Below, in pieces: positions 6,304 through 36,851 of a stretch of 38,323 nucleotides of DNA. The stretch is from Acidobacteriota bacterium. GTDB lineage: Bacteria; Acidobacteriota; Thermoanaerobaculia; Multivoradales; JAHEKO01. Made by a program: the position numbers and the translations under genes. The first letter of the stretch is position 1. Every line of letters begins with the position of its first letter. The DNA lies in NCBI GenBank assembly GCA_029863825.1, contig JAOTUP010000001.1, forward strand, positions 1 to 38,323, read 5' to 3'. The notes below the pieces were generated by a model, which was not told the DNA's origin, ran no database searches, and saw only the letters and a program-made list of their open reading frames with translations.

Positions 6304-6397
6304 AGGCCGCCGCCTCAGGTGACGAGGGTAGAGTAGAAGCTGGCGGAGGGTGCTCCGGAGTCCGGGCGCCGTTTGTCGAGCGGAAGGAGCTGTCCTG

Positions 6398-13555: not shown

Positions 13556-13746
13556 CGTGAGGCCTTCACATGAAGGACTGAGTTGACAGACGAAAAGGTC
13601 AATTGCAACAATGGCGCCAAGCGCTGCAATCAGGGAGTGAGACGGGTGAGGGTTCTCGAACTACAGACGCCGTCCGGCGACGAGCCGAACGAAGGCGGAA
13701 TGAGGGCGCGCTGTAGCCGGGAGCTCGCCGTACCTGCGAGAGAATC

Positions 13747-14469
13747 ATGAGCTGTCAGGGATGTTCATACACGGGAATCTCGACCGCGATTGAGCATAAC
13801 TTCGTCGGTGTGCGTTTCCGGGAAGAGACCAATCTCACGCTGTGTGAAAGCGGGGAGGAGATCTACTCGCAAGGCGAAACAGTCGTCGTCGAGCTCGACT
13901 CGGGCCCCGCGGTCGGACGCATCGAGCGCTCACCGATGCCGATCTTCAAGCCGTGCCAGAAGTCGAATTCGGGCCGCATTCTGCGTCGCGCCGGAGAGAA
14001 AGATCGAGAGCTCCACGAGCGCCAGCTCACGCGTGAGATGAGCGCGAAGCGATTCGCTCAGGAGCGCGTTCACAGCCTGTCCCTGGAGATGAAAGTATCG
14101 AAAGTCCAGTTCTCGCTCGATGGAAGCTTGGCCCGCTTTTTCTTCACTGCCGACGGACGAATCGACTTCCGTGAATTAGTGCGGGACTTGTCCGGGCGCT
14201 TCTCGGTAAAGGTGCGGATGGTCCAGGTGGGCACTCGCGATGAAGCCGGCCTCATCGGTGGTGTCGGGGTGTGCGGCCGGACGCTCTGTTGTTCAACCTG
14301 GCTCAAGGACTTCAGGCCCATCTCGATCCAGATGGCGAAGCGCCAGGGCCTGAGTCTCAATCCTTCGAAGATCTCCGGTCAGTGCGGAAGGCTTCTCTGT
14401 TGCCTGGCCTACGAGGACGATCAGTATCAGAAGCCCAAGGCGAAGCAGAGTCCAACACGAGCGAACTGA
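13747..14469 (+). CDS. ricT: PSP1-domain protein (RicT/YaaT family)
   Basis: 240 aa. PSP1 C-terminal region with the paired Cys motifs [11 protein letters not shown] and [11 protein letters not shown]. Confidence 0.8.
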
Positions 14470-14470
14470 C

Positions 14471-14788
14471 ATGAGTAACAGAAAGCTGATTCGACCCGAC
14501 CTCTCGGAGATGAAGGGAACCGCCGGTCGCGCGGTGCGCAGGAAACAGACGCCGCCCGAGCAGACGAATGCCGAGGAGTTTTACTACCTGAAGCAGATGG
14601 CGGCGCGCACGGCAATGGTCGTCGTGCTGACCGATGGGAGCGAACTGCGCGGCTGGATCGAGTGGTACGACAAGAATGCCATCAAGCTCAACCGCCAGGG
14701 TGCGCCCAATCTCCTGCTCCTGAAACACAACATTCGCTACATGTTCAAAGAGGAAGAGCTCAAGCGCCGGCACAAGCGCGCCACCTGA
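14471..14788 (+). CDS. Sm-fold, Hfq-like RNA-binding protein with basic N-terminal extension
   Basis: 105 aa. The core [42 protein letters not shown] follows the Hfq Sm1/Sm2 layout (V.L.nG..L.G.I..fD...l.L......l..KH.I). It starts 1 nt after the ricT stop. Confidence 0.55.
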
Positions 14789-14827
14789 GGGCGGCAGAAT
14801 CTTCGCAGAAGTCGCTAAACTCCTGTC

Positions 14828-15856
14828 ATGGCTGCGCGCAGCCGAGCTCCAATTCTTGCCGTCACCCAGGGTGACGCTGCCGGCGTCGGCCCGGAGATTC
14901 TGGTAGCTCTCGCGGTATCCGAGAGCTCTCGGTATCGACTCCTGCTGGTCGCCGAGGAAGCTGCGCTGTCGCAGGTCTCAGCCGCCGTCTCCGAGACAGC
15001 GGGAGTGAGTTTCCACTATCTCACCGGCGCGCCGAGTCGAGACGCATTGGATGAGCAGCCCCCGCATGTCATCTCGGTTCTCGATCCGGTAGCCGAACCT
15101 CGACAGGTGCGCTTCGGCCGTTCCGGCGCTGCTGATGCGGCGGGTGCCCTCGCGTGTCTGGACGCCGGGATCCGTTTGGCGCAACAGAATGTAGTGGATG
15201 CGCTGGTCACGGCGCCGGTCAGCAAGGCGTCGATCGCCACGCATCATCTGCCGAGCTTTCGCGGCCATACCGACTACCTGGCCGAACGCTGTGGGTTGGA
15301 GCGCTACGGGCGCGAGTATCTGATGGCGTTTCTGACATCGGAGCTGCAGGTGGCGCTCCTCACCACGCACGTTCCGCTCGTCGAGGCGGTGAGGAGTGTA
15401 TCGACCGAGGCCCTGTCGGCCGCTCTTGAGTGTCTGCATCGCCATGCCGGTGGCCGCATCGCCGTCGCCGGCCTCAACCCGCACGCTGGAGAAGGCGGCC
15501 TTTTGGGCGGCGAGGAGGCGGACCTCATCCGGCCGGCGGTCGAGGCGGGTCGCACGGCTGGCATCGACGTGGCGGGACCCGAGAGCGCCGACTCGGTGTT
15601 CTCGCGCGCCCGTCGCGGTGAGTTCGACTGGGTGCTGGCGTTGTTCCATGATCAGGGCCTGATCGCCGTCAAGACTCTCGCCTTTGGAGGTTCGACGAAC
15701 TGGACACTCGGACTGCCGTTTCTGCGTACGTCGGTCGATCATGGGACGGGTTTCGAGATCGCCGGTCAGGGTCTCGCCGATGCCACACCCTTGCGGATGG
15801 TGTGTGAGACGACGTGCGATCTCGTCTCGGGTCGTCTCCCGAGGCGCCGGGCATGA
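14828..15856 (+). CDS. pdxA: 4-hydroxythreonine-4-phosphate dehydrogenase
   Basis: TQGDAAGVGPEI, TAPVSKASI, GHTDYLAE, GLNPHAGEGG, HDQGLIAVK and TSVDHGTGFEIAG. Confidence 0.9.
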   Translation: MAARSRAPILAVTQGDAAGVGPEILVALAVSESSRYRLLLVAEEAALSQVSAAVSETAGVSFHYLTGAPSRDALDEQPPHVISVLDPVAEPRQVRFGRSGAADAAGALACLDAGIRLAQQNVVDALVTAPVSKASIATHHLPSFRGHTDYLAERCGLERYGREYLMAFLTSELQVALLTTHVPLVEAVRSVSTEALSAALECLHRHAGGRIAVAGLNPHAGEGGLLGGEEADLIRPAVEAGRTAGIDVAGPESADSVFSRARRGEFDWVLALFHDQGLIAVKTLAFGGSTNWTLGLPFLRTSVDHGTGFEIAGQGLADATPLRMVCETTCDLVSGRLPRRRA

Positions 15857-15907
15857 AGAGGCTTCTTCGTTGACCGGTTTCAACAGGCGTCGGTAGACTG
15901 GCAATCT

Positions 15908-17191
15908 ATGTTGTCCCGTGACCTGCTGCGCAGCGATTCCGAGAACGTCAGAGAGAAGATCGCCGCTCGTGGCGCCGACGCGGATCTGGTTGACCGCTGG
16001 GTGGAGCTGGATCGCAACCGGCGCCAGCTTCTCGGCGATCTCGAAGAGCTCAAGCGGCGGCGCAACGAAGCGAGCAAGCGAATCGGCGAGCTCAAACGCA
16101 AGGGCGAGGACACCGAGGATCTCATCGCCGAAGTGGCCGATCTCAAAGGCCGAGTCACCGGTTTCGAAGCCGAAGTGGCGGCCGTCGACGGTGCGTTGGA
16201 GGAAACGGCGCTTTCATTTCCCAACATCGCTCATGAGAGCGTTCCTGCAGGTGTCGATGAAGAGGCCAACCGAGTCGAGCGTGTGGTCGGTGAACCGAGA
16301 CAATTCTCGTTCGAGTCCAAGGCCCACTGGGATCTTGGACCGGAGCTCGGCATCCTCGACTTCGAGCGCGGTGCCAAAGTTGCGGGAGCACGCTTCACCG
16401 CCTACTTCGGAGCCGGGGCGCGGCTGGAGCGAGCACTCATCAACTTCATGCTCGACCTTCATACCAGCCAGCACGGCTATCGAGAGGTGCAGCCGCCGTT
16501 CATCGTCAACACGGACGCGCTGATCGGCACCGGTCAGCTCCCAAAGTTCGGAGACGACCTGTTCAAGCTCGAAGGTCACGAGTACTACCTGATTCCCACT
16601 GCCGAGGTGCCGGTCACCAATCTTCATCGACAGGAGATTCTCGACGAAGACGAGCTACCCGTGAAGTATGTGGCCTATACGCCGTGCTTCCGCGCCGAGG
16701 CCGGCTCCTACGGGCGCGACGTCCGCGGACTGATTCGCCAGCACCAGTTCAACAAGGTCGAGCTGGTTCACTTGACGACGCCAGAGACGAGCTATCAGGC
16801 TCTGGAAGAGCTGACAGCGAGTGCCGAGCGCGTTCTCCAGCTTCTCGAGCTTCCGTATCGAGTGGTCTGTTTGTCGACTGGAGATATGGGATTCGGCGCG
16901 GCGAAGACCTACGATCTCGAAGTGTGGCTTCCCGGGCAGAATGCCTATCGCGAGATTTCTTCATGCTCGAACTGCGAGGCATTTCAGGCGCGGCGGGCCG
17001 GACTCCGATACCGACCGAAGGACGGCGGTAAGCCGCGCTTCCTGCATTCGCTGAACGGGTCGGCGTTAGCGGCCGGACGAACGCTGGTTGCGGTGCTCGA
17101 GAACTACCAGTGCGAGGACGGGTCGGTTCTGATACCCGAGGTCTTGCGTCCGTACTTCGGTGGTCTCGAGAAGATCACCGCCGCGTCCTGA
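15908..17191 (+). CDS. serS: seryl-tRNA synthetase
   Basis: 427 aa. N-terminal coiled coil, then class II motifs: [38 protein letters not shown] and [18 protein letters not shown]. Confidence 0.95.
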
Positions 17192-17352
17192 CACGGTCAA
17201 CGTAGACTCCGGGCGGCGAGTCGGCTCTCTGTCTTCCTGTCTGATCGTCCTCGAGCAAGGCCTCTTTCGAGCCGCTCCGATAGGATTCTCTGCCAGGAGA
17301 GGACTCCAGGTGACGCTGTTCGCTGTCTGGCCGTCCGCGCAAGGTTGGGAGA

Positions 17353-19533
17353 ATGGTCGGCGATCCGACAAAGCCATCACGACAGCTCTTGATAGCGACG
17401 GTATTGGGCCTGGCTGCGATGTCAGTGCTCATCCTCCTGGCAATCGAACGCGGATCGATTGGGCGCGTTTCCGGCGATGAGGGTACCTACGTTGCGATGG
17501 CCGAGAGCCTGGCGCTCGATTTCGACCTCGAATTCCGGGAAGAAGACGAAGCCCGCGTTTCCGGCGCCCCAGAACCGGGTCGTAGGACGGTCATCCTGCA
17601 GCGAACGCAGCGCGGCATCTCTTACTCGAAACCCTTCGTGCCTGCCTTGGTTGCGGCGCCGTTCTTTGCGCTTGTCGGAGCACGCGGACTGATCGTTGCC
17701 AACGTGTTGGTGCTGGCTGCCGCTCTGGTCGCGCTGTGGCTCTATTTGAGACGCCTCGGTGGCAGCGGCGCATCGGCCTTGACGCTCGTCACCTTTGCCG
17801 CCAGCGGTTCGCTGTTGCCATATGTTGTGTGGCAGACGAGTGATCTCCTGCAGGCGTGCCTGGCGCTCACCGGCCTGACGCTGTGCCTCGGCCGTCTGCG
17901 CAAGCCGATCTCGGCGGATCGGAGCTCCGATCTTCTCGATCAAAACTGGTCGCTGTGGCTGGGCGCCGCACTTCTCGGCGTGCTCGTTGCCCTGCGGCCA
18001 CCCAACATTTTCATCGCCGGGATCGCACCGCTCGCCCTGATCGCCTCCGGCAGGCGACGCCACGGCGCCGGAGTAGCGACGGCAATGGTCCTCACTCTTC
18101 TTGCCGTCGGCGGCGTCGGGTTGCTCGTCTTCGACAGCGCCATGCCTTACAAAGCCGAGCGCGCGACTTTCAACTCCCAGACCGGCTACCCTGCCGGGGA
18201 TGACGTCGAGACGGTTTCGACTCAGTTTGAGGCCGGGCGCGCGACGTCGAGCCTGGGCGTTGTGCCGGATTGGAAACCCAGAGTCTCCGCCTACTCGTCT
18301 CTCTACTTCCTGATCGGGCGCCACACCGGGGCGCTGATCTATTTCCCGGCGCTTTTCTTTCTGTTGTGGACAGTCGTCCGTTCGCCTGATCGAACGAGCC
18401 TGTTGGTTCTGGGCGGCGTCATTGCCGCCAGCACCTTCTTTCTTGTGTGGTTACCGTTCAACTACTTCGGTGGAGGGAGCTGCATCGGGAATCGCTACTT
18501 TCTGGCGAGCTACGCGGCGCTGCCGCTGGCCCTTCGAAGGCCGCTGGGGCGATGGAGCCTGGTGGGCTGCTGGCTTCTCGCCGCGGTCGTCGCTTCCTCT
18601 GCAGTCACTTCCGAGCGAATAACGCCGATCGAGGGACGCACGAGTCAGAGTCACGCTCACGCCGGCATCTTTCGATGGCTTCCGTATGAAACGACAGCCT
18701 CAGATCTCGAAGGGAGTCGCGACCATTACTTCGGCAAGGACTTTGTTCGCACGGTCGATCCGTTCATTGGCGCCGGCGAGTGGATCTTCGAGCTGCAGAG
18801 CGACCGGCCGGCGGCCGAGATCGCGCTCGCCAACCTCGAGCGCGAGGAAGCGGTGCGCTTCTTGGTCCACTCTGCGGCCCCGAGCATCGAACTGGAGTAC
18901 TCGGACTACGGACAGAAGGTGTCCGTCGTGCTCGAGAAGCCGCTCGGTCTCAGAGGGGTTGTCGAACTCGCGCCAACACCACCGATTCGGTACCATCCGC
19001 TCTGGTTTCGCAACCTCTGGGACCATGGCAAGCCCTACTGGGTGCGCGTCTTCCGAGTCGGGCTGCGGTCCGTGGACGGCTTGCCGGCGGCCGCAACGAT
19101 TCGCTTCCTTGGACGCGAGAAGTTCCCACCGGACCTCTTCGAGCGGACCGTCCTGGCGGCGGAGCTGCCGGATTCGGTCGTGGCGGGTTCGGTCTCGAGA
19201 GTCACGATCCGCGCGCGTAATCAGAGCCGCGGCGCGTGGCGATCGGAGGGTCTGTTTCCCGTCTTCTTGAGCTACACGCTTGAGCCGCTGAAGAACGGCC
19301 GCAGTGAGGTAGAGGAAGGGCAACGGAATCCTCTGGGAGGTGCGATCAGGCCGACTGCGGAGCTTGCGCTACCGCTCGAGATTCGCTGGCCGTGGAAACC
19401 GGGCTCGTATCGGGTGAAAGTGGATCTGGTGGCCGAGGGCGTGGCTTGGTTCGAGAGCATGGTCGGCGCTCCGCTGGTGGAAGGCACTGTGAACGTCGTG
19501 GGCCAAGAGAGCGAGGAAGCCGGTGGCGCATGA
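17353..19533 (+). CDS. large polytopic membrane protein, putative GT-C (ArnT/PMT-like) glycosyltransferase with soluble C-terminal domain
   Basis: 726 aa. At least 10 hydrophobic helices in the first ~450 aa. A GDEGTYVAMAESLA loop follows helix 1, resembling the DE..Y first-loop motif of GT-C enzymes. The last ~270 aa are non-membrane. The CDS is certain; the function is tentative. Confidence 0.45.
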   Translation: MVGDPTKPSRQLLIATVLGLAAMSVLILLAIERGSIGRVSGDEGTYVAMAESLALDFDLEFREEDEARVSGAPEPGRRTVILQRTQRGISYSKPFVPALVAAPFFALVGARGLIVANVLVLAAALVALWLYLRRLGGSGASALTLVTFAASGSLLPYVVWQTSDLLQACLALTGLTLCLGRLRKPISADRSSDLLDQNWSLWLGAALLGVLVALRPPNIFIAGIAPLALIASGRRRHGAGVATAMVLTLLAVGGVGLLVFDSAMPYKAERATFNSQTGYPAGDDVETVSTQFEAGRATSSLGVVPDWKPRVSAYSSLYFLIGRHTGALIYFPALFFLLWTVVRSPDRTSLLVLGGVIAASTFFLVWLPFNYFGGGSCIGNRYFLASYAALPLALRRPLGRWSLVGCWLLAAVVASSAVTSERITPIEGRTSQSHAHAGIFRWLPYETTASDLEGSRDHYFGKDFVRTVDPFIGAGEWIFELQSDRPAAEIALANLEREEAVRFLVHSAAPSIELEYSDYGQKVSVVLEKPLGLRGVVELAPTPPIRYHPLWFRNLWDHGKPYWVRVFRVGLRSVDGLPAAATIRFLGREKFPPDLFERTVLAAELPDSVVAGSVSRVTIRARNQSRGAWRSEGLFPVFLSYTLEPLKNGRSEVEEGQRNPLGGAIRPTAELALPLEIRWPWKPGSYRVKVDLVAEGVAWFESMVGAPLVEGTVNVVGQESEEAGGA

Positions 19534-19572
19534 ATTACGCCCTGCGCGCGCAGTAGGTCCGAGTCTCCACGG

Positions 19573-21483
19573 ATGGTGGGGGGTGACGTGTACGAAACGC
19601 TGATCTGGCTGGTGCCGATCTCGGTCGCTCTTGCCGGACTGTGGTGGCCGCGGGCCGGGCTCCTGGTCTTGGCGGCAACCTTGCCTCTTTTCGGAGCCCC
19701 GCCAGGCGGACCGTATCTTGGAGCTCTGGATGTCGCTGCCCTGGCTGCCATCGGTACCGGCTTGCGAGCGGGACGCAGCCGGCGCAGCTCGCTCGACGTC
19801 GGAGTACTGGCGGTTGTCGTCGTCACGCTGGCGGCGTTCTTTCCGCTTGCTTACAGGCCGCCGGACTGGTCACCCGGGACTCTCTTCAAGCTCATGACCA
19901 TGCTTCCGGGCGTCGAGAGCTGGTCGAGCCTCTATACATGGAGGGCTGTCGCGAACGTGCTGCTGGGAATCGGCCTCTATCTGTCCGTCAAGCGAGCGTT
20001 CGGACGCACGTCGCCGCTGGCATTGGGACGGGCTCTTGGTGTCGGACTGCTGGCGGTGCTGGGTCTCGGGTTCTTCGAGCTCGCAGGATGGATCGATCTC
20101 TCGGGCTATCGGCCGATAGGTTTGGCGATCTTCGACCAGCGATTTCATTCGCTCTTCTTTCACTCGGGATGGATGGCCGAGTTCGTAGTGCTGGCGACGC
20201 CGGTTGCCGTCGGGGCATGGGCGAGCGGGACACGCGCAAAACCGCGAGTTGCCGCAGCTCTGGCGTTTCTGGCACTGACGGCCGTTCTCCTCAGTGGGCA
20301 ACGGGGCGCCTGGTTTGCAGCCCTTTTTCAAGTGGTGATAGTGGCGGCCGTCCTGGGTCGCTCATTGCTTCACGGGCGGCGTCGCTGGCGTTTCGCGGCC
20401 GCTGGCGTGACGACGATGGCGGTCCTGGTGCTGGGCGTCGTGCTGGCGCGACCGGAGGTGGGTTCGTCGCTCGAAGAGCGGTTGGGAAACGCGACGAAGA
20501 ACCTCTCCAACCGGACGTTTGTCTGGAGAGCAGCGCTCGATATGGCCGGCGATCGCCCGCTCTTGGGCTGGGGAGCCGGGAGCTTTTCGCCGGTACTGGA
20601 TCTGGAAGTCCTGCCTGAAAGCTCCCAGGACTCGCGAGTTCCGGGCCGAGCGACGCTGGGACACCATCACGGCTGGCTCACGGCTCATAGCACGTACCTG
20701 ATGTTCCTGGCGGAACGTGGAGCTCTGGGGCTGGCCAGTCTTTTGTTGGTCGGGTGGCTCGCGGTGACGATCTCCGGGCGAGTCGTGCGTGACGACGCCT
20801 CGGCGTCGAGGGCTCTAGCTCTCGGACTTCTCATCAGTGCGGCGGGCTTTGCGATGTACGGAGTGGTTCAGTACCTCTTCTTCCCGCGGGCAAACGCCTT
20901 TCTCGTCTGGCTGCTCCTCGGCTCGGTGGCGACGCTCGACCCCGGTGTCACCGGACGCAAGGCGGTGCGGATCGGCCAAGCACTCATCGCGGCGGCGCTC
21001 ATCTTGCTGCCGTTGAGAGCCTTGGCGTGGGAACCGGCTCCGGCGCGGAGCGAGCAGAGCTTCGGCTTTCATCCCCCCGAGCACGGGGCGCAGAAGGCGA
21101 CGCATCAGTGGACCTCGGCGCGTCGCGCGGTCCGGCGTCTGGCGTGGGAGGATCAGGTTCTTCAGCTTGCGGTGGCCAACGGTCATCCGAAGGCCTCTGT
21201 CGAGCCGGTTCTGGTGGAAGTGCTGGTCGATGGAGCGGTGGTCAAGCAGTGTGTTGCCGGTGAGGGATGGCAGAAGCTGGGGATCTACCTGGGACCGCCG
21301 ACCAAAGACGCAGTGCTTCTCGAGATTGCGGTGAGCCGGACCTTCCGACCGTTCAGCGACTACCGGCGCTTCCCGGACCTTCCCGCGTCGCGCGATATTC
21401 GCCGACTCGGGATTGCCGTCGGCGAGATCTCCTGGACCAGCGCTCCGCAGACGATCGAGATTCCGGTGCCGAACTCGGAATGA
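19573..21483 (+). CDS. O-antigen ligase (Wzy_C) family membrane protein with C-terminal extension
   Basis: 636 aa and polytopic. SGQRGAWFA, RTFVWRAALDMAGDRPLLGWGAGSF and HSTYLMFLAERGALG form the Wzy_C block. A soluble tail of about 170 aa follows. Confidence 0.65.
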   Translation: MVGGDVYETLIWLVPISVALAGLWWPRAGLLVLAATLPLFGAPPGGPYLGALDVAALAAIGTGLRAGRSRRSSLDVGVLAVVVVTLAAFFPLAYRPPDWSPGTLFKLMTMLPGVESWSSLYTWRAVANVLLGIGLYLSVKRAFGRTSPLALGRALGVGLLAVLGLGFFELAGWIDLSGYRPIGLAIFDQRFHSLFFHSGWMAEFVVLATPVAVGAWASGTRAKPRVAAALAFLALTAVLLSGQRGAWFAALFQVVIVAAVLGRSLLHGRRRWRFAAAGVTTMAVLVLGVVLARPEVGSSLEERLGNATKNLSNRTFVWRAALDMAGDRPLLGWGAGSFSPVLDLEVLPESSQDSRVPGRATLGHHHGWLTAHSTYLMFLAERGALGLASLLLVGWLAVTISGRVVRDDASASRALALGLLISAAGFAMYGVVQYLFFPRANAFLVWLLLGSVATLDPGVTGRKAVRIGQALIAAALILLPLRALAWEPAPARSEQSFGFHPPEHGAQKATHQWTSARRAVRRLAWEDQVLQLAVANGHPKASVEPVLVEVLVDGAVVKQCVAGEGWQKLGIYLGPPTKDAVLLEIAVSRTFRPFSDYRRFPDLPASRDIRRLGIAVGEISWTSAPQTIEIPVPNSE

Positions 21484-21491
21484 GCGCGCCG

Positions 21492-21497
21492 TATACT
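21492..21497 (+). promoter_or_regulatory. candidate -10 element (TATACT) for tRNA-Ser
   Basis: TATACT ends 11 nt before the first tRNA nucleotide. No convincing -35 was found. The same decamer CGTATACTCT recurs at 22273-22282. Confidence 0.3.
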
Positions 21498-21508
21498 CTG
21501 CCCTGAGC

Positions 21509-21598
21509 GGAGGGGTGGCAGAGTGGTCGAATGCACCGGTCTTGAAAACCGGCGACCCTTCACGGGGTCCGCGGGTTCGAATCCCGCCCCCTCCGCCA
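21509..21598 (+). tRNA. tRNA-Ser (anticodon UGA), class II, CCA encoded
   Basis: Hand-folded. Acceptor GGAGGGG/CCCCTCC; 3-bp D stem GCA/TGC; anticodon stem CCGGT/ACCGG with loop CTTGAAA; long variable arm GACCC..GGGTC; T arm GCGGG-TTCGAAT-CCCGC; discriminator G plus CCA. 90 nt. Confidence 0.9.
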
Positions 21599-22087
21599 CG
21601 ACATGCGATGGCTAGCGGTAGAATCGTTGTCGTCGAACTGTGATGTTCGGAGCGTGGTCGGGATTCGAACCCGAGCGTCCCGAGCGCTTGTCGCGAGGGC
21701 GCCAGAAAGCACGTCGAACCGAAGGTCGCGCCGCGGCCTTCGAATCCCGCCCCCTCCGCCACGACATGCGATGGCTAGCGGTAGAATCGTTGTCATCAAA
21801 CTGTGATGTTCGGAGCGTGGTCAGGATTCGAACCCGAGCGTCCCGAGCGCTTGTCGCGAGGGCGCCAGCAAGCACGTCGAACCGAAGGTCGCGCAGCGGC
21901 CTTCGAATCCCGCCCCCTCCGCCACGACATGCGATGGCTAGCGGTAGAATCGTTGTCATCAAACTGTGATGTTCGGAGCGTGGTCGGTATTCGAACCCGA
22001 GCGTCCCGAGCGCTTGTCGCGAGGGCGCCAGCAAGCACGTCGAACCGAAGGTCGCGCAGCGGCCTTCGAATCCCGCCCCCTCCGCCA
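21599..22087 (+). repeat. three head-to-tail 163-bp tandem repeats, each ending in a copy of the last 23 nt of tRNA-Ser
   Basis: Units at 21599-21761, 21762-21924 and 21925-22087. The period was verified against three track ORF stops (21643, 21806, 21969) and the 22225 stop. Every unit ends TTCGAATCCCGCCCCCTCCGCCA. There are 2-6 substitutions between units. Confidence 0.9.
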
Positions 22088-22386
22088 GACCGTACGGGAT
22101 TCGAACCCGCCGTCTGCAAGAGCCGTGACCACATGAGCGCGCTCATGCTCGCAAGCAGTCTCACGTCGACAGTTGAAGATCTGGCCCCCTTATGGCCCCA
22201 CTCGCCGGGGACGGTGAGTCTCTGAAGGACGACTGGATGGACTGAGCCGGCGGAGTTTTTCGCGGGTCCTGACGTATACTCTCGGCCTCGATCGAGCGGG
22301 TTCACGAGCTGTGTCGATGGTCGGTGGTCACCGCCCGTGTGGAGTCACGGCTTTCTCATGCCTTGCGATCGATCGATGTCGCAGCC

Positions 22387-23688
22387 ATGACGTATCTCAA
22401 TCTCGTTTCGCTTCTCGGCTGGGTCGTGCTGTGCGGCCTGGCGTGGCTCATCGGCGGCGTCAAGCGGCCGCTACCGTGGCGGACGGTCCTGGGCTCGACG
22501 GCGCTCACTTTCGGCCTCGGAGCGGTGGTATTCCTGGTGCCGTTCAGCCGCCGACTCCTCCTGGTGCTGAACGAGATCATCCTCGTCGGTTTGGGGAGCA
22601 GCGCCAAGGGCGCCGTGTTTCTCCTCGGGCCGCTGGCCTTGAGCCCGGGGCAGAGCACTGCTGGCGGTGAGCCGTCGATCGGGTTCGTGCTCGCCGCACA
22701 GGTGCTGCCGGCGGTGATCTTCTTTGCCGCGTTGATGGGTGTTTTTCACCACCTCGGCCTCATCGAGCCGGTGGTGCGTTTCTTCGGTCGCATTTTTCAC
22801 CGCACCCTGGAGCTTTCGGGTGCCGAGGCGCTGACCGGCTCGGTCCATATGTTTTTCGGCGTCGAGACCGCAGCCGCGGTGCGGCCGTACCTCGGGACGA
22901 TGACTCGCTCGGAGCTGCTCGTGGTGTTGGCGTCGAACCTGTCGACGGTCGCTTCGACAACGCTTGCCGTCTACGTGATCTTCTTGCGCGATGTCTTCCC
23001 GCAGATTGCCGGCCACTTGGTGTCGGCATCACTTCTGTCGATACCCTGCTCGGTCCTGGCAGCAAAGCTCATGCTGCCGGAAACGGGTGTGCCCGAAACG
23101 CGAGGTGCGGTGCCGGAGATGGCGCGCGCCGAAAAGCACGGGAGTGTCATGGGAGCGCTGGCTGCCGGCGCTTGGGACGGACTCAAGGTGGCGGCGGGGA
23201 TCACCACGATTCTGATCGCTATTCTCGGCCTGGTCGGGGTGATCGATGTGATCCTGGCTTCGGCCGGTCGGCTCGTGCTTACCGATGCCGAACCCCTGAG
23301 CCTGGCGCGCCTCCTCGGGTGGGGTTTCATGCCGTTGGCCTGGCTCCTGGGGATCGAGCAGGGCGATTTCGCCCTCGCCGGTCGCCTGCTGGGTCAGCGT
23401 CTCGTCCTGACAGAGGTGGTGAGCTATCAGGAGCTCGGCGTCCTGGCGGCGGAGAACCGGTTTTCCCCGCGAACGCTTTTGGTGTTGTCGTACGCGCTCT
23501 GCGGCTTCGCGCACGTCGGCGGCATGGGGATTGCGGTAGGCGGCTTCGGAGCGCTGGCGCCGGAACGTCTCGACGATCTGGCAGGGCTCGGCCTGCGGGC
23601 GTTGGCGGCTGCCACACTGGCGACGCTCTTGACCGGGTGTGTCGCCGGCGTCTTCTACCACGGGCAGAGCGGTCTTCTCGGGCTGTAA
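22387..23688 (+). CDS. nupC: concentrative nucleoside transporter (NupC/CNT family)
   Basis: ATG at codon 22 of ORF 22324..23688. Polytopic, with a C-terminal LCGFAHVGGMGIAVGGFGALAPER block typical of CNT transporters. Confidence 0.75.
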   Translation: MTYLNLVSLLGWVVLCGLAWLIGGVKRPLPWRTVLGSTALTFGLGAVVFLVPFSRRLLLVLNEIILVGLGSSAKGAVFLLGPLALSPGQSTAGGEPSIGFVLAAQVLPAVIFFAALMGVFHHLGLIEPVVRFFGRIFHRTLELSGAEALTGSVHMFFGVETAAAVRPYLGTMTRSELLVVLASNLSTVASTTLAVYVIFLRDVFPQIAGHLVSASLLSIPCSVLAAKLMLPETGVPETRGAVPEMARAEKHGSVMGALAAGAWDGLKVAAGITTILIAILGLVGVIDVILASAGRLVLTDAEPLSLARLLGWGFMPLAWLLGIEQGDFALAGRLLGQRLVLTEVVSYQELGVLAAENRFSPRTLLVLSYALCGFAHVGGMGIAVGGFGALAPERLDDLAGLGLRALAAATLATLLTGCVAGVFYHGQSGLLGL

Positions 23689-36788: not shown

Positions 36789-36847
36789 CCCCAATCCCCC
36801 ACACCCCCCACGCCCTCAGTCCCTCAGCCCCTCACGCCCCCACGCCC
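36789..36847 (-). repeat. G-run array (putative G-quadruplex-forming tract) on the sense strand between glnS and tkt
   Basis: The minus strand reads GGGcgtGGGGGcgtgaGGGGctgaGGGactgaGGGcgtGGGGGGtgtGGGGGattGGGG. That is eight runs of 3-6 G with 3-5 nt loops in 59 nt. Confidence 0.6.
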
Positions 36848-36851
36848 TCTC

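Follow-up and report, generated by a model that had tools for sequence, protein, structure and literature searches.

The locus described here raises the question of why an intact tRNA-Ser(UGA) gene should be followed, directly after its encoded CCA, by three head-to-tail 163-bp units that each end in a copy of that tRNA's own 3' end. It lies in a 38,323-nt stretch of DNA (the window) from an uncultured acidobacterium of the class Thermoanaerobaculia (assembly GCA_029863825.1, contig JAOTUP010000001.1, positions 1 to 38,323, forward strand). A preliminary description of the window had offered three readings: amplification of an integrase attachment (att) junction or scar by unequal crossing-over, a stack of minimal non-autonomous att-carrying elements, or an array of small RNAs co-transcribed with the tRNA and tagged with an acceptor/CCA mimic. 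Unequal crossing-over and co-transcribed acceptor/CCA-mimic RNAs fit the evidence given below, whereas an att scar or stacked mini-elements found no support. The description had also held that no described class fits the arrangement. This was mistaken, as the tRNA-linked repeats (TLRs) of E. coli, with the rtT RNA repeats of tyrT/tyrV as type example, share its architecture (PMC8144298). By every architectural criterion tested, the window array is a TLR array. We consider it probable, in addition, that these TLRs work by readthrough from the tRNA gene, processing of the transcript and recombination between the units, as proposed below.

ARAGORN and Rfam agree on one intact tRNA-Ser(UGA), and three 163-bp units follow it. 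The tandem array spans 21576–22087 (period 163, 3.1 copies, 97% matches, 0% indels by Tandem Repeats Finder), and a repeat search returned three 186-nt copies at an exact spacing of 163 nt. The block TTCGAATCCCGCCCCCTCCGCCA, identical to tRNA positions 21576–21598, ends each of the three units, and the 5 nt before it read CGGCC in all units, not the T-stem strand GCGGG. The variant positions between units listed in the preliminary description are all present. Within a unit we distinguish a spacer (S), an inverted copy of the tRNA T arm (T'), a hairpin (M), a variable segment and the terminal tRNA-derived block, which together with the 5' half of T' can form a closing helix (P1). Two covariance models were used for scoring: R1, built from eight units, and R2, a model of the M hairpin. 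The features of the locus are as follows.

21492–21497, + strand: -10-like hexamer TATACT, 11 nt 5' of the mature tRNA end (read from the sequence).
21509–21598, + strand: tRNA-Ser(UGA), intact, CCA encoded (ARAGORN; Rfam RF00005, 62.7 bits).
21576–21598, + strand: last 23 nt of the tRNA (3' part of the T loop, 3' strand of the T stem, 3' strand of the acceptor, G73, CCA), the block that recurs at every unit end.
21599–21761, + strand: TLR unit 1, 163 bp, with spacer, inverted T-arm copy, M hairpin, variable segment and 23-nt block (Tandem Repeats Finder; repeat search; R1 91.7 bits over 21655–21761).
21599–21655, + strand: spacer S of unit 1, recurring at +163 and +326; its length is conserved across genera, its sequence is not.
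21656–21673, + strand: T' block of unit 1, GGTCGGGATTCGAACCCG, the inverted tRNA T-arm copy, recurring at +163 and +326 (inverted-repeat search).
21673–21710, + strand: M hairpin of unit 1, also at 21836–21873 and 21999–22036 (R2 34.6–40.8 bits).
21739–21761, + strand: 23-nt tRNA 3'-end copy of unit 1, also at 21902–21924 and 22065–22087; 3' strand of P1 plus the single-stranded CCCCUCCGCCA tail.
21762–21924, + strand: TLR unit 2, 163 bp, with the private variant GGTCAGGATT, which gives an A.C mismatch in helix P1 (Tandem Repeats Finder; R1 86.2 bits).
21925–22087, + strand: TLR unit 3, 163 bp, with the variant GGTCGGTATT, which gives a P1 mismatch (Tandem Repeats Finder; R1 84.9 bits).
22095–22110, + strand: perfect 16-nt inverted T-arm copy (CGGGATTCGAACCCGC), 7 nt past the array (inverted-repeat and repeat-family search).

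In E. coli, 22 TLRs are found at 10 loci, with one to five per locus, within tRNA or rRNA operons, and the last 18–19 bp of each TLR are the same as the 3' end of the gene that directly precedes it; in the type example, tyrT/tyrV, a 178-bp repeat present in 3.14 copies encodes the rtT RNA (PMC8144298). The acidobacterial array has the same disposition. Its first unit starts directly behind the CCA, at 21599, and shares the + strand with the tRNA; the identity with the 3' end of the upstream gene is 23 nt in all three window units; and the number of units is 3.1 in the window and ranges from 1 to about 2.8 in relatives and same-species contigs. When the E. coli K-12 tyrT/tyrV locus was re-measured with the tools used on the window, tyrV gave a period of 178, 3.1 copies, 95% match and 0 indels by Tandem Repeats Finder, and its units end in AATCCTTCCCCCACCACCA, the 3' end of tRNA-Tyr (19 nt vs 23 nt in the window). 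The likeness extends inside the unit. In tyrV, an inverted repeat (22 nt, 86%, arms 67 nt apart) links the T arm of the tRNA to the unit; the inverted repeat behind T' in the window measures 27 nt at 81%, its arms lying 66 nt apart. Within the tyrV unit, a perfect 10-nt complement pairs with the unit's own 3' block, and the corresponding window repeat is 14 nt at 93%. From the CCA to GGGGAAGGAT, where the P1 strand of E. coli RtT starts, is 59 nt, and from the CCA to GGGAT in the acidobacterial units is 59–62 nt. This spacer of about 59 nt followed by a pairing inverted T-arm copy is thus shared, as a criterion that comes from the tyrV/RtT measurement and stands outside the published definition of TLRs. 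The Rfam RtT consensus follows the same plan as the acidobacterial units: a P1 helix in which the tRNA-derived block takes part, hairpins inside it, and an unpaired tail ending in CCACCA, so that in both systems a closing helix surrounds hairpins and leaves a tail of about 10 nt ending in CCA. E. coli TLRs are reportedly treated in Egan & Landy 1978, Bosl & Kersten 1991 and Rudd 1999.

The two systems also differ. The E. coli type example belongs to the Gammaproteobacteria and to tRNA-Tyr, the present array to the Acidobacteriota and to tRNA-Ser(UGA); the internal sequences are unrelated, the acidobacterial units having an M hairpin with a CUUG loop and tandem G.A pairs; and the window array is without a tpr-like open reading frame (ORF). 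RNA production has been shown for some E. coli TLRs and is proposed, below, for the units described here. The Rfam RtT model (RF00391, gathering score 45 bits) returned nothing at E<=10 on 21400–22400 or on the related contigs L015, L016, L017 and L024, and gave 133–137 bits on E. coli as a positive control. Since the RtT model fails to detect them, we take the acidobacterial units to be a new TLR family, apparently unrelated in sequence to that of E. coli and found in a distant phylum. In the reverse comparison, R1 gave 16–17 bits on four E. coli RtT copies, aligned in register (P1, the GGGCGAA motif and the tail), the same level as it gives on plain tRNA genes. The homology of the acidobacterial units to RtT is suggestive only, and a generating mechanism or selective pressure shared with the E. 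coli TLRs is a safer statement than common descent. Another Rfam family, the proteobacterial small RNA sX4, gave sub-threshold matches of 22–30 bits across 21506–21662 (tRNA-Ser and the start of the spacer), with equivalents in L015, L016, L017 and L024; these probably stem from that family overlapping tRNA-Ser-like sequence.

Orthologous loci were reached through homologues of Wzy_C, the protein encoded upstream of the array. In at least six related lineages, represented by L015, L016, L017, L023, L024 and L027, the orthologous tRNA-Ser(UGA) again has homologous units behind it; the Wzy_C proteins of these contigs are 54–66% identical to that of the window (the L024 protein is partial, with 62% identity across 80% of the query). 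A comparison of this kind, proposed in the preliminary description, gave unit counts from none upward. L018 and L019 (Wzy_C 53% identical) have the tRNA-Ser, and no units were found there; L016 has one 200-bp unit; L015 has two, of 193 bp and about 200 bp, and its tRNA and units are inverted relative to Wzy_C; L024 has one 228-bp unit and one that is truncated; L017 has about 2.8 units of 160–161 bp each; and in L023 and L027 the start of a unit lies at the contig end. The relatives' units thus range from 160 to 228 bp and carry one or two M modules. R1 picked up the L027 unit, which was outside its training set, at 48 bits (E 4e-9), and across about 268 kb of related sequence it found nothing further except weak matches on tRNA genes. 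In three contigs from different samples (L020, L021 and L022) the sequence ends about 217 nt past Wzy_C inside an insertion sequence (IS)-like helix-turn-helix ORF, at the place where relatives have tRNA-Ser.

Aligned to one another, the units share the order S, T', M, usually GGGCGAATC and a second hairpin (H), sometimes a second M, and finally the tRNA 3'-end copy. T' is nearly invariant, GGGAT(T/G)CGAACCC, and the distance from the CCA to GGGAT is 59–62 nt in all 12 of the units measured. What persists between lineages is T', the M loop GAGCGCUUGCGCGA and the length of the spacer, whose sequence is scrambled; a GGGCGAAUC motif is found in the units of L015, L017 and L024. The tRNA 3'-end copy is 23 nt long in the window and 13–20 nt in the relatives, and in every species it stops exactly at CCA and matches the resident tRNA. 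In L024 and L023 the tRNA T stem is altered to AAGGG/CCCTT, and in L024 the terminal block (GAATCCCTTCC) and T' (GGAGGGATTC) have changed so as to give a compensated C-G to A-U pair and a G.U pair. Unit 1 of L015 resembles the L016 unit (72%) more than it does its own neighbour, L015 unit 2 (66%), which indicates that the tRNA-proximal unit is orthologous between species, and old.

Read on the tRNA strand, M consists of an outer stem of 5–7 bp, a tandem G.A/A.G, a GCG/CGC stem and a CUUG tetraloop (GAGCG-CUUG-CGCGA); the window copy has the outer stem GCGUCC/GGGCGC, tandem G.A, GCG/CGC and a CUUG(U) loop. The outer stems vary with compensation (GCGUCC/GGGCGC, GCACCU/AGGUGC, CUGCC/GGCAG, GGCGACC/GGUUGCC), and the inner stem GCG/CGC becomes CUG/CAG in L016. 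Over 13 instances of M, 78.6% of cells were paired, a level reached by 0 of 500 shuffles and to be compared with 29–58% pairing in slid controls. Both sides had changed in 6 of 9 pairs of the hairpin (equalled in 3 of 500 shuffles), and the covariation score was 0.252 vs 0.151 (1 of 500). In helix P1 the 5' half of T' is matched to the tRNA-derived block at the unit's end, as GG(U)CGGGAUUCGAA/UUCGAAUCCCGCC in the window and GGCGGGAU/AUCCCGCC in L017; the helix encloses the internal hairpin or hairpins, and beyond it some 10 nt remain as a tail, CCCCUCCGCCA-3', the same as the tRNA's own end. For the whole three-helix model, counted over 12 units in an alignment fitted to the model, 81.9% of cells were paired, 9 of 26 pairs had changed on both sides and the covariation score was 0.158 vs 0.079; none of 500 shuffles reached the pairing, the both-side changes or the score, and slid controls gave 32–47%. 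These numbers support the helices and do not prove them, since the alignment leans to the model and the sequences are related. A different pairing, in which T' binds the extreme 3' end (UCCGCC), appeared with RNAalifold and in the minimum-energy fold of L017; it was set aside, as it is uncompensated in L024 whereas the pairing with the T-stem strand is compensated. Acceptor-like GGAG/CUCC closing pairs occur only in the window, L017 and L027.

Which strand would be the functional one had to be considered together with the possibility that the product is a degenerate type-II tRNA-like gene, similar to tRNA-Sec or to allo-tRNAs, on the opposite strand. Such a gene would begin with the acceptor strand GGAGGGG and hold a canonical T arm (GGGUUCGAAUCCC), the inverted T-arm copy being a perfect T-loop consensus in that orientation, and Rfam gave a weak tRNA-Sec match there at 21650–21752 (20.2 bits, E 0.37). 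That score is, however, far under the tRNA-Sec gathering score of 47, and ARAGORN called nothing on the opposite strand at any locus, tRNA-Ser being the only gene detected; checks of the kind suggested in the preliminary description, by a tRNA finder and by Rfam, both call one intact tRNA-Ser gene at the locus. Most species, moreover, are without a 3' acceptor strand after the supposed T arm, and the fold z-scores were weaker on the opposite strand in four of four species (-1.63 for the tRNA strand against -0.38, -4.20 against -3.09, -3.45 against -1.26, and -2.43 against -0.39). A related idea, that the unit is an inverted tRNA-Ser pseudogene, was prompted by an interior that looks, by eye, like the anticodon and D arms in reverse complement; aligning the interior locally with the tRNA-Ser body, scored against dinucleotide shuffles, gave z values of -1.6 to +0.3 in both orientations, and the idea was dropped. 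The failure of the opposite-strand gene, the fold z-scores, the CUUG loop and tandem G.A pairs, which occur on the tRNA strand only, and the end of the block at the mature CCA all favour the tRNA strand, and we regard an opposite-strand product as highly improbable. A tyrosine integrase targeting the 3' end of tRNA-Ser would provide another explanation, the units being scars or stacked minimal non-autonomous elements in which the 23-nt blocks are att cores and the 140 bp between them fused attP arms. The duplication of a tRNA 3' end past an intact tRNA is the usual footprint of integration, as in the attL/attR pairs of these integrases, the locus is a synteny breakpoint with downstream genes differing among genera, and L019 has a lone 12-nt copy of its tRNA end about 440 nt downstream. 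The array differs from such duplications in being tandem, in having no recombinase or cargo, in the constant stop of the identity block at CCA, in its conserved spacer length and in an interior that is structured and covarying. Hairpin stems that vary freely while the loops are kept are RNA-like, unlike arm-type protein sites; the retention is vertical across genera, as the relation of L015 unit 1 to the L016 unit indicates; and the same anatomy occurs in E. coli TLRs without any integrase. Pfam scans of the larger ORFs of the 38-kb window found no integrase, transposase or recombinase domain, in keeping with the earlier remark that the window has no mobile gene, and the Pfam tables of L012, L015–L019 and L024 hold no recombinase domain; the flanks of relatives likewise yielded no integrase or transposase domain. 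A match of the 140-bp part to an integrative element had been named as the sign of an ordinary decayed att scar, and none was seen: BLAST against 50,697 phage records gave no match and against 72,556 plasmid records short, weak matches only. The M-hairpin motif from the relatives' units had 0 matches in IMG/VR, and a spacer 20-mer had 0 matches in 185,579 species genomes and, in a metagenome collection, one chance match in AT-rich phage-like coding DNA. An origin as integrase scars or mini-elements is accordingly very unlikely.

The remaining explanations concern the copies themselves. Three contigs from other samples (L012, L013 and L014) match the window at 99.75–99.96% identity and so represent the same species; L014 stops short of the tRNA. 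In L012, a short-read (k141) assembly, the tRNA is followed by a single unit whose variants are like those of window unit 3 on the 5' side and like unit 1 on the 3' side. In L013 (99.9% identical) unit 1 is that of the window and is followed by a second unit with the unit 3 variants, in which the contig ends. The unit count in same-species contigs is therefore 1 in L012, at least 1.75 in L013 and 3 in the window, and the array is variable in copy number and mosaic within one species, the pattern expected of unequal recombination or gene conversion between units. The window units, 97–99% identical to one another, would reflect either a recent expansion or homogenisation. That the three copies are merely an assembly expansion of one unit might be argued from the single unit of L012, and from the poor handling of 163-bp repeats by short-read assemblers, L013 terminating within the array. 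Unit-specific substitutions nevertheless distinguish the three units, L013 independently reproduces the tRNA-unit 1 segment and the junction into a second unit, the L012 variant pattern is not obtainable by collapsing the window array, and L015, L017 and L024 hold multi-unit arrays at the same place. An assembly artefact is unlikely for the array in general, and as an origin for the three copies we give it almost no credence. A more serious alternative, though still an unlikely one, is that the array has no function and is a by-product, a tandem duplication that arose neutrally in one event of slippage or unequal crossing-over at the tRNA 3' end and has drifted since. The copy-number variation within the species would suit this explanation, and several further observations do so too while also weighing against the TLR reading as we have stated it. 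P1 is mismatched in window units 2 and 3 and in the single unit of L012, and distal units decay, the last units being truncated in L017 and L024 and the terminal block of L015 unit 2 carrying an insertion; the mismatches and the damaged units imply that some copies are not under selection. No function is known for the TLRs of tRNA operons even in E. coli (PMC8144298). Other points weigh on the TLR reading alone: the one-unit L012 is possibly a partly collapsed short-read assembly, the count of G.U vs A.C pairs (12 vs 8) does not tell the strands apart, the failure of Rfam RtT on the units and the 16–17 bits of R1 on RtT leave common ancestry with the E. coli family unproven, and transcription and processing of the units rest on analogy. 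Against a neutral origin, however, the T' block, the M loop, the GGGCGAAUC motif and the spacer length persist at 54–66% identity of the neighbouring protein while the spacer sequence is scrambled, the helices are maintained by compensatory changes, and in L024 the strand that pairs with the terminal block has changed in step with the tRNA. An anatomy kept across genera, hairpins that covary and a block that tracks the tRNA speak for an architecture that is selected, or that a general mechanism produces, as opposed to a single accident.

Returning to the array as TLRs, we propose the following working scheme. Transcription from the tRNA-Ser promoter would read through into the units; readthrough is proposed because no terminator-like site was found between the tRNA and the units. 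The -10-like hexamer TATACT is likely to be a promoter element of the joint transcript of tRNA and array, and it precedes tRNA-Ser in L015, L016, L017, L018, L019, L023, L024 and L027 (as TAGACT in L027); a consensus promoter scan found no full sigma-70 site. The enzymes of tRNA 3' maturation would then cut and trim after each copy of the tRNA 3' block. This step is modelled on E. coli, where transcription and processing have been demonstrated for some TLRs and where the 3' end of RrB maps beside the repeated block (PMC8144298). The products would be the tRNA and separate structured RNAs, each about 160 nt long, with the fold P1-M(-H) and a C-rich tail ending in CCA. RNAs from the trailer of a stable-RNA operon would have precedents in 3'ETS-leuZ, from a tRNA operon trailer, and in the rrA/rrB/rrF TLR small RNAs of rRNA operons, both freed by the operon's own processing enzymes, with binding to Hfq or CsrA shown for RrA/B/F (PMC8144298); 3'ETS-leuZ differs in being non-repeated and without a tRNA-end copy. 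The array itself would grow, shrink and turn mosaic through slippage or unequal homologous recombination, in which both the 23-bp blocks and whole units would serve as partners, with selection acting chiefly on the tRNA-proximal unit.

The units could possibly act as tRNA minihelix mimics. A broader and decidedly tentative suggestion, which we think more apt to fail than to hold, is that TLRs are an ancient or repeatedly evolved functional RNA module that reaches beyond the enterobacteria and has a fixed geometry: about 59 nt of spacer, then an inverted T-arm copy paired to the tRNA 3'-end copy, internal hairpins, and a single-stranded acceptor-CCA tail. If so, a module selected in both Acidobacteriota and Proteobacteria could engage enzymes or regulators that recognise tRNA 3' ends or CCA, and the acidobacterial family, whose helices covary and whose loops are invariant, would be the first comparative handle on a TLR function unexplained since 1978. 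The array extends the TLR class well beyond the enterobacteria, and its comparative data could make function testable, the conserved elements on offer being the CUUG-looped M hairpin, T' and the length of the spacer. In practical terms, such arrays can be mistaken for att scars, break short-read assemblies and yield spurious ORFs.

The surroundings of the array differ on its two sides. In the window the upstream neighbour is an O-antigen-ligase-like Wzy_C gene, with seryl-tRNA synthetase 4.3 kb upstream, and the downstream neighbour is a NupC-type nucleoside transporter gene. The upstream order PSP1-Hfq-PdxA-SerS-X-Wzy_C-tRNA-Ser, in which X is a 700-aa unknown, is kept across genera (window about 13700–21600, L015–L019 and L024). 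Downstream of the tRNA and TLRs the genes change in nearly every lineage, with NupC, DUF1554, sulfatase and GH20 genes among them. A search by the NupC route led to ten relatives, metagenome-assembled genomes of Acidobacteriota (class Thermoanaerobaculia/"Candidatus Multivoradales"), whose downstream genes are about 71% identical at the nucleotide level, with NupC kept and adjacent SDR genes in several; none of the ten has tRNA-Ser upstream, so that synteny breaks there. Judged from these gene orders, the tRNA/TLR locus is a recurrent rearrangement boundary, and a synteny breakpoint at this place implies that integration or rearrangement downstream of the array has occurred.

Some smaller observations concern the array and its modules. 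The inverted T-arm copy at 22095–22110, which is followed by a perfect 16-nt palindrome (CATGAGCGCGCTCATG) at 22132–22147, also occurs in L012; R1 did not recognise this stretch as a unit, and it may be the relic of an older unit that has lost its spacer. In L024, an isolated M-like hairpin lies at 421–456 (CGCC-GA-GCA-CUUG-UGC-GA-GGCG, then CCAAAGAGCACAG), about 70 nt 5' of serS; its inner stem is compensated, the M model scored it at 29.5 bits, and it is the sole convincing M copy outside the arrays. M had been entertained as a dispersed REP-like element, an idea given up when the M model matched within arrays only, apart from this copy upstream of serS and one doubtful match inside a coding sequence. 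The 12-nt copy of its own tRNA-Ser 3' end in L019 (CTCCCCTCCGCC, 6374–6385), about 440 nt past the tRNA, could be a genuine att-type scar; the interval between the tRNA and the copy is free of TLR modules and holds a small ORF preceded by AAGGAGG. A 10-mer, CGTATACTCT, occurs in the window at 21490–21499, where it includes TATACT, and again at 22273–22282, about 100 nt 5' of the NupC-like gene. Elsewhere in the window, tandem repeats lie at 1536–1575 (9 nt, 4.3 copies) and at 36805–36849 (16 nt, 2.8 copies of CCCCCACGCCCTCACG), the latter between the transketolase and Glu/Gln-tRNA synthetase genes.

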